Source of the DNA: an uncultured Actinomycetota bacterium
GTDB taxonomy: Bacteria; Actinomycetota; Actinomycetes; Propionibacteriales; Nocardioidaceae
DNA: 64,000 nucleotides
Direction: 5' to 3'
Assembly: GCA_963813615.1 (NCBI GenBank)
Contig: CAWFAE010000016.1
Span: forward strand, 164,531 to 228,530
A program made the translations under genes and the position numbers. The notes beneath the pieces were generated by a model. The model ran no database searches. It was not told the DNA's origin and worked only from the letters and a program-made list of their open reading frames with translations. This document shows, one piece after another, positions 28,732 to 29,507 of this stretch (positions are counted from its first letter, which is position 1; each line of letters opens with the position of its first letter).

Positions 28732-28846
28732 GAACGGCAACGTACCGCCGATCACTTGAACGATCCAATAACCACCCGGCGGCTGGCCCGTTGTACCCCC
28801 GCAGACGATCCGCGGAATCTGCTTGGTGGGAGTCGAACGGGACGAG

Positions 28847-29365
28847 TCATGGGGGCTCGTCCCGTTCGGCATCTGCAGCTGCCTGCGAGGAACGAGCAGG
28901 CCGCGGCCGGTGGGTTTCGAGACGCTCGCTGGCGCTCGCGTGCTCGACCACCGGAGCACGACGCGCGGCTCGCCGCGCGACGCTTCCGGTGGTCGAGCAG
29001 CCCGGAGCGAGGAACGAGCGACGGGCGTCGTCGAGACCCCGGAACCGACCGACTCCGCCGCTGGCTCGGCGAGCGGTCTCGCGGTTGCGCCCCCGCGCGA
29101 GCGCCGGCAGGTCGTCGTACCGCCCCTCGATCAGCGCGATCCGCTTGGCGCGGCTCCACTTCCGGATCCGCTTCTCGTAGAAGAACGCGTCGTCCACCCG
29201 GGCGAAGTCAGCCGCCCAGGCCAACCTGACCGGGCGACGCCGACGCGGCTTCGTGTACGACGCCCCCTCGCCGAGGTTGTGCTGACTGATCCTTCGTTCG
29301 AGGTCGATCGTGCTTCCGACGTAGAAGCTGCCGTCGGCACACTCGAGGATGTAGGTCCAGGCCAT
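28847..29365 (-). CDS. GIY-YIG nuclease family protein (YhbQ/UPF0213-like); as assembled the frame runs on through the repeats
   Basis: [38 protein letters not shown]...RPVRL...[20 protein letters not shown]; the domain ends near 29100. Confidence 0.88.
28881..29040. repeat. REP-like palindromic repeat cluster left of the GIY-YIG gene (modules 28881-28901, 28913-28954, 28986-29040)
   Basis: GGTTTCGAGACGCTCGCTGGCGCTCGCGTGCTCGACCACCGG followed by an inverted copy CCGGTGGTCGAGCAGCCCGGAGCGAGGAACGAGCGACGGGCGTCGTCGAGACCCC. Confidence 0.85.
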
Positions 29366-29425
29366 GCGGTGCGCGTTCCCGGCCGCCTTGCGCGATCCAC
29401 GGCCGCTGCGCCTGTGGTCGAGGCC

Positions 29426-29507
29426 GGGGTCTCGACGACGCTCGCTGGCGCTCGCTGCTCGACCACCGTTGGCCGACGCTCGCCGGCGCTCGCTGCTCGA
29501 CCAGCGG
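29426..29507. repeat. REP-like palindromic repeats right of the GIY-YIG gene (29426-29468, 29475-29507)
   Basis: GGGGTCTCGACGACGCTCGCTGGCGCTCGCTGCTCGACCACCG and a partial copy GACGCTCGCCGGCGCTCGCTGCTCGACCAGCGG. Confidence 0.85.

Follow-up and report, generated by a model that had tools for sequence, protein, structure and literature searches.

The 64,000-nucleotide stretch of DNA analysed here (the window) carries a small GIY-YIG nuclease gene bracketed by members of a dispersed hairpin repeat family, and this pairing of gene and repeat extends across phyla. A hairpin was present on both sides of 52 of 59 close homologues, as compared to 4 of 130 control window pairs, and on both sides of 45 of the 50 metagenomic homologues with full flanks. 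The concept of a hairpin-bracketed GIY-YIG nuclease has already been published; the enzyme branch and the hairpin described here are different ones. We consider it probable that the cassette spreads itself by a cut-and-patch mechanism.

The gene lies on the minus strand (start ATG at 29365) within the spacer between two divergent genes, presumably glgP and glgE, as named from a first reading of the letters. The left neighbour has a second copy, identical to it at 98%, on which Pfam identified DUF3417. GIY-YIG was the sole Pfam match of the nuclease itself (PF01541, residues 1-74, E 1.9e-16), and no NCBIfam family scored above its cut-off. Residues Y5, Y15, G17, R25, H29 and E64 were invariant in an alignment of 45 homologues. 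Sequence searches of the PDB returned 1zg2 and 1ywl, and the predicted model (pLDDT 95) matched these two structures and Slx1 in Foldseek. Most homologues are 92-114 aa long. The window frame reads 172 aa, to a stop at 28847-28849 past the downstream repeats, because a stop that is kept in the 98% identical orthologue L001, which ends at 104 aa, is missing. A frameshift or an indel in the assembly accounts for this, and the tail is probably no real domain. The gene is single-copy in its own 5.2-Mb genome, where the three other GIY-YIG matches are two long UvrC-type proteins and a similar long multi-domain frame. Viral contigs yielded six weak relatives, which did not support a phage-gene origin.

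Upstream of the start codon, at a distance of 55-61 nt, TCCACA was found in 46 of its 52 occurrences among 87 high-GC loci, a fixed position that suggests host control. The site, TCCACA(G) and often TT(G/A)TCCACA, is degenerate in the window (29412-29418), and the word also occurs twice upstream of DUF222 genes. The site resembles a DnaA box. A perfect 13-bp stem-loop at 28834-28868, also present in L001, L289 and C4, is unrelated to the hairpin family.

The original prediction described five palindromic repeat modules around the gene. Three of them proved to be full units and a fourth a unit without its 3' stem; the fifth, placed at 28881-28901, shrank to a 13-nt fragment (Table 1). The innermost copies are inverted about the gene as predicted, and their perfect 15-bp end extends to 18 bp. 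The 28913 and 28986 copies likewise form the expected inverted doublet, of opposite-strand units at 28913-28953 and 28987-29038. The term palindromic did not hold, in that the units are not plain palindromes. ViennaRNA with DNA parameters did not pick them out as strong hairpins, and five of six strand folds had z values between -1.8 and +0.5 (the remaining one, -3.1).

Table 1. Positions of the nuclease gene, its flanking repeats, and insertions and elements elsewhere (window coordinates unless a contig or locus is given)
Feature	Position	Strand	Basis
Single-domain GIY-YIG nuclease, UPF0213/YhbQ-like, first 94 codons	29084..29365	-	Pfam, alignment, PDB sequence matches, Foldseek
Read-through tail of nuclease frame across downstream repeats	28847..29083	-	Frame reading, comparison with L001
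13-nt inner-arm fragment of long variant, not a full unit	28885..28897	+	Family D8
CG-tagged hairpin unit (GGTC-GAG ... CGA-AACC), the outer one of the inverted doublet	28913..28953	-	
Hairpin unit, long variant; innermost downstream copy, 3' end toward gene	28987..29038	+	
18-bp perfect inverted repeat around gene, left arm	29025..29042	+	
18-bp perfect inverted repeat around gene, right arm	29424..29441	-	
Hairpin unit, commonest genomic variant; innermost upstream copy, 3' end toward gene	29428..29468	-	
Hairpin unit lacking the 3' stem; inner arm and 5' tag kept	29474..29506	-	
Hairpin-nuclease-hairpin cassette inside EcoAI-type hsdR, reading frame kept, immediately ahead of the DECHR motif	L137:1292-1816, L144, L158, L179; proteins P0002-P0121		
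DUF222-HNH copies, own genome	C3:1240-2676, C15:394812-396243, C1:176997-178459, C16:104260-105695, C23:477113-478508, C23:183366-184825, C24:143308-144746		

We defined the hairpin as NNNY-GAG-(2-40 nt)-CGA-RNNN, so that GAG and CGA are constant across loci by definition. Read with its 3' end toward the gene, a unit opens with a 5' tag, after which comes a stem arm of 4 nt whose last base is a pyrimidine. GAG follows, then an inner arm that varies between 2 and 40 nt in length, and the unit closes with CGA and the stem complement. The tags are mostly CGGT, CGCT and CGTT, with CGTCA in Flavobacterium, and the stem sequences include GGTC, GGTT, CCCT, TCCT and GGCT among others. When counted in the own genome with a pattern that did not demand pairing, the Y/R pair was C-G in 51 cases, T-A in 22, C-A in 6 and T-G in 4 (n=83). 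Judging from this covariation and from DNA chemistry, Y-GA-G against C-GA-R would fit tandem sheared G.A pairs, which the accessible text of PMC8163305 describes in DNA. Tandem G.A pairing was absent from the ViennaRNA folds. The opposite strand of the hairpin would carry T.C mismatches.

The repeat family exceeds chance, because the most frequent 16-mers of the own genome come from it, the genome-wide count that had been proposed gave 66 strict copies versus approximately 5 expected under a third-order Markov model, and the loose hairpin flanks a random site on both sides only 1.7% of the time. Doublets and arrays are present in the own genome and in its close relative G441. Clusters matching the strict pattern in the own genome mostly comprise one unit, and their degenerate partners fall outside the count. 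A second abundant repeat in the same genome, GCGGTTTGGTCACCAACCGCA-like, has approximately 20 copies.

For the close homologues, hairpins were scored within 400 nt on each side of the gene, and control window pairs were placed 1-2 kb away. The 59 scored loci came from 69, after removal of matches shorter than 60 residues and of the window's own locus. The inward orientation of the window's hairpins recurred in 33 of the 52 bracketed close homologues. The 80 metagenomic homologues span GC contents of 0.33-0.74, and 61 of them were bracketed irrespective of flank length. By comparison, none of 18 housekeeping YhbQ/YazA-type genes, all with full flanks, was bracketed (E. coli yhbQ, B. subtilis yazA and actinobacterial UPF0213; control groups were assigned by eye after inspection, and the remaining odd rows stand in neither group). 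A phylum-wide profile search, in which at most 16 candidates per genome were scored, served as a source of control genes, not as evidence of absence. Thus, the association of nuclease and repeat that had been predicted was found in close and distant homologues alike, and the enrichment of flanking repeats proposed as its check was present. Neither of the sequence-based outcomes named as refuting it, unenriched flanks or a syntenically fixed gene free of repeats, was encountered.

In the proposed check for co-variation, repeat similarity followed protein identity across 138 loci (Mantel rho 0.47, reached in 0 of 999 permutations), a correlation that kinship alone could cause. Upstream and downstream repeats were 0.89 alike within a locus and 0.63 alike between loci. 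The test on paralogues within a genome gave 14 of 20, a weak result from non-independent cases.

Within the genus, the nuclease occurred in 12 of 24 genomes, with 0-3 matches each, and its distribution was patchy and non-syntenic. The glgP-glgE spacer was looked for at 30 loci. Both genes were present at 10 of them, and the nuclease was missing from 9 of these 10 readable spacers, in agreement with the empty sites that had been expected in relatives. In eight distant relatives the spacer measured 57-299 nt and lacked a hairpin. An 88% relative had hairpin doublets there without the nuclease, and a 97-98% relative had the nuclease, but with a different repeat array. In this unrooted comparison, the cassette has been either gained or lost at the spacer among close relatives. 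The own genome also contains a second glgP region (C4:28893-29758), 98% identical and with other hairpin variants, after which the contig ends; it probably represents the haplotype of a second strain within the assembly.

The repeats themselves were also polymorphic. Genome G441 carries 154 repeats; 53 of these sites were tested, and 36 had orthologous flanks in the own genome, where 22 were empty (by eye, two of these resemble copies in decay), 6 degenerate and 8 shared. The original prediction saw no target duplication around the gene, and none was found at any junction of the 36 orthologous site pairs. At empty sites, 7-270 host bases stood in place of the repeat, the larger values being inflated by nearby indels. 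The junctions were ragged, so the cut site could not be read from them. In L348 and L349, compared with C15 of the own genome, single hairpins replace a stretch of similar length in apparent coding sequences. The median number of repeats per genome was 162 with the nuclease versus 45.5 without it (p 0.028, 12 versus 12 genomes, with the own genome included and one fragment-only genome excluded), which is only a trend, as kin are non-independent and the ranges overlap. Five repeat-rich genomes of the genus had no match to the family profile; three of these are at least 90% complete, and one is a single contig with 50 repeats.

Four metagenomic homologues lie inside the type I restriction gene hsdR, where they split the helicase domain (Table 1). 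A reversed hairpin opens the insert and a forward hairpin closes it, and a few host codons are replaced. Pfam reported no splicing domain. All 120 matches listed from a search with the insert region carry a GIY-YIG domain, a figure that gives no insertion frequency because the query included the insert. With a host-only query, 114 of the 120 proteins listed lacked the domain, and 106 of 109 parsed empty alleles contained an 18-residue MSGPNDTPYFGEY-type segment. The catalytic pattern was intact in 117 of 118 parsed inserts. When stem covariation was scored on these 118 proteins as P..G, G..P, A..A and T..V, the translated ends were stem-complementary in 107 of 110 cases on the right (shuffle mean 42) and 102 of 111 on the left (mean 51), with shuffles that ignore relatedness.

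On a FastTree of the host parts (114 filled and 109 empty alleles, the latter sampled only near one query), the filled or empty state changed nine times, of which seven changes were forced by starred branches. For 7 of the 114 filled alleles the nearest neighbour was empty, at 93-99% identity, and identities of host and insert were weakly correlated (rho 0.31). Gain of the insert and replacement by an empty allele are indistinguishable here, and either needs segment exchange at the site. Related nucleases in L177 and L171 are fused in frame, via translated hairpin arrays, to MeaB and a JAB domain; the MeaB fusion includes approximately 200 codons of translated repeats.

Homing endonucleases and inteins place an active nuclease within the reading frame of a host gene, always at the same site and amid empty alleles. 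The hsdR inserts share this arrangement, but they are bounded by hairpins, replace host codons and lack a separate DNA-binding domain.

Stand-alone GIY-YIG genes bracketed by hairpins were previously published as the Ssn nucleases with their NTS repeats (PMC11893778), and the predicted status as a new system is to that extent not supported. According to the accessible text, Ssn enzymes correspond to the cd10448 clade and cleave single-stranded DNA in a strand- and site-specific manner just upstream of an oriented NTS hairpin. Its authors, Chenal et al. 2025, remark on the IS-like NTS-ssnA-NTS layout and raise both the REP/RAYT parallel and domestication. The window protein resembles Ssn in being a single-domain GIY-YIG enzyme of approximately 95 aa with catalytic Tyr, Tyr and Glu, encoded between oriented hairpins that have a conserved 5' tag and are dispersed genome-wide. 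In contrast to Ssn, its tyrosines are spaced by 10 rather than 11 residues, and its repeat, with definition-fixed GAG/CGA and a free inner arm, does not match the SRM. The SRM pattern (HGTCWY...) was found nowhere near the window gene, at 0 of 59 close homologues and at 1 of 80 metagenomic ones, as compared to 6 of 19 Ssn-type rows used as a positive control. Empty sites and in-frame hsdR insertions, found here, do not appear in the accessible text of PMC11893778.

In a 43-row tree, 12 Ssn-type rows formed one clade without the window protein (100/99, branch 1.04), and a 96-row quick tree gave the same split; rows were assigned as Ssn-type by tyrosine spacing and SRM flanks, and N. meningitidis SsnA was not among them. 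An AU test did not reject union of the window group with Ssn (p 0.32), the tree does not separate the window group from YhbQ/YazA, and, at 39%, the window protein has the same identity to YazA as to one Ssn-type protein with SRM flanks. We do not regard it as an Ssn member, because it falls outside the Ssn-type clade, is UPF0213-like and belongs to a group with the SRM at 0 of 59 loci. Of the 19 Ssn-type genes, 2 are bracketed by this G.A hairpin as well, there with TGTCA as its tag, which suggests a possible connection between the two repeat classes. At L086, L096 and L100, Ssn-type proteins are flanked by TGTCA-tagged G.A hairpins that escape the published SRM pattern. A match from N. gonorrhoeae was considered as SsnA and rejected, being a UPF0213-type gene without hairpins. 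Nocardioides alpinus, which carries this nuclease gene (L004), is scored in Supplementary Data 4 of PMC11893778 as tblastn no, loose psiblast yes and CDD>100 no.

The predicted REP/RAYT-like layout without a dedicated transposase stood, the bracketed gene being a GIY-YIG nuclease. As in REP/REPIN-RAYT systems, hairpin repeats flank an enzyme gene, form inverted doublets and long arrays, and occur where the enzyme is missing (PMC3116915, in which Bertels and Rainey 2011 defined REPINs; PMC3733652). Unlike RAYTs, the enzyme is a GIY-YIG hydrolase and not an HUH tyrosine transposase, so that no chemistry for joining strands is known for it; singlets are numerous here, and host bases are replaced at the junctions. 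The best sequence and structure matches are UPF0213/YhbQ/YazA and Slx1, with which the tyrosine spacing is shared. However, hairpins are lacking at yhbQ of E. coli and yazA of B. subtilis, both of which overlap their neighbours, whereas the window group is patchy and repeat-bracketed, with no fixed operon position. The system would function in the manner of Ssn/NTS and has a layout resembling REP/RAYT, and it departs from Ssn in two tests and from RAYT in the defining one. In the largely open-access literature and most of the Ssn supplements, the UPF0213-side group, this repeat and the hsdR insertion were not described, and the Ssn paper was the only one found on GIY-YIG genes with flanking hairpins.

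In the cut-and-patch mechanism that we favour, the enzyme would recognise and nick the single-stranded hairpin, by analogy with Ssn enzymes, and nicking would drive the spread of repeats and nuclease gene alike. One strand of the hairpin would fold with tandem sheared G.A pairs; strand specificity could arise because the complement cannot form them. The cut would fall beside the 5' tag while the DNA is single-stranded, and host recombination or repair may then patch it with another hairpin array as template, whereby between a few and some tens of host bases would be replaced. Since no strand-joining enzyme is encoded, joining would be left to the host. Both cleavage and self-mobilisation by the enzyme are read from sequence and stay predictions. 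We put forward more tentatively that these cassettes might represent a widespread class of autonomous mobile element whose sole enzyme, a GIY-YIG protein of approximately 95 residues, reads a strand-specific tandem-G.A hairpin. Such an element would seed genomes with non-autonomous hairpins, home in frame into hsdR and other conserved host genes without splicing and be the missing mover of RAYT-less repeats, with YhbQ/YazA possibly domesticated offshoots.

A domesticated Ssn-like nuclease that cuts the hairpin for a host function, such as trimming incoming or recombining single-stranded DNA or resolving hairpins at forks, while the repeats multiply by other routes, would fit the single copy in the own genome and the positioned TCCACA site; in Neisseria, SsnA lowers transformation by NTS-bearing DNA (PMC11893778). 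We think this unlikely, as the gene is patchy and non-syntenic, with up to three matches per genome, and its repeated in-frame presence in hsdR beside empty alleles fits a selfish element better. It is very improbable that the association is one of RNA level or of chance, with hairpins that serve as signals for transcription or mRNA stability and a gene for an ordinary YhbQ-type repair nuclease. Although UPF0213 proteins and Slx1 are the nearest matches of known structure, and the repeats adjoin many unrelated housekeeping genes, these repeats are found within genes as well as around them, in either orientation, Rfam returned only three weak miRNA matches far under threshold, and the flanking statistics, including the absence of bracketing from housekeeping genes, largely refute this reading.

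The nuclease could also be cargo, with REPIN-like units moved by a RAYT-type HUH transposase, a DUF222-HNH element or an IS. Consistent with this are the repeat-rich genomes without the nuclease and the DUF222-HNH element, which lies directly behind the hairpin at 8 of 9 leader sites. This element is 1.44 kb long, with at least seven copies in the own genome that are 78-93% identical; its 3' end is sharp, at the stop codon, and in 6 of the 7 its 5' end directly follows the hairpin; the repeat is therefore used or carried by a further element. This element resembles the REP13E12 family. In two nuclease-free genomes, however, a hairpin was near only 1 of 15 DUF222 matches. One Y1 transposase gene, the sole PF01797 match in the own genome, lies elsewhere, seems to contain a frameshift and has another kind of repeat at its flanks. 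The hairpin class accompanies the nuclease family across hosts with GC contents of 0.33-0.74, and catalytic residues are retained even within hsdR. Di Nocera et al. 2013 reported CGTC-type repeats without a linked tyrosine transposase, in a text whose accessible part does not contain the word 'Actinobacteria' (PMC3733652). We therefore judge cargo status distinctly unlikely and retain the self-spreading cassette as the preferred reading.

With these results, nuclease-hairpin partnerships are no longer confined to the published Ssn clade but include another branch, adjacent to YhbQ/Slx1, whose different recognition structure would add a pool of predicted site-specific cutters of single-stranded DNA. 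They also bring comparative evidence to the question, raised by the Ssn paper, of whether such nucleases spread their repeats, and the filled and empty hsdR alleles and polymorphic sites make such spreading directly testable. The Y1/RAYT-like transposase gene mentioned above (L227, own genome C24:29050-29196) has its own CACTGGTGG...CCACCAGTG repeats and sits at the edge of a stretch of 57-60% GC that is foreign or mis-binned DNA.
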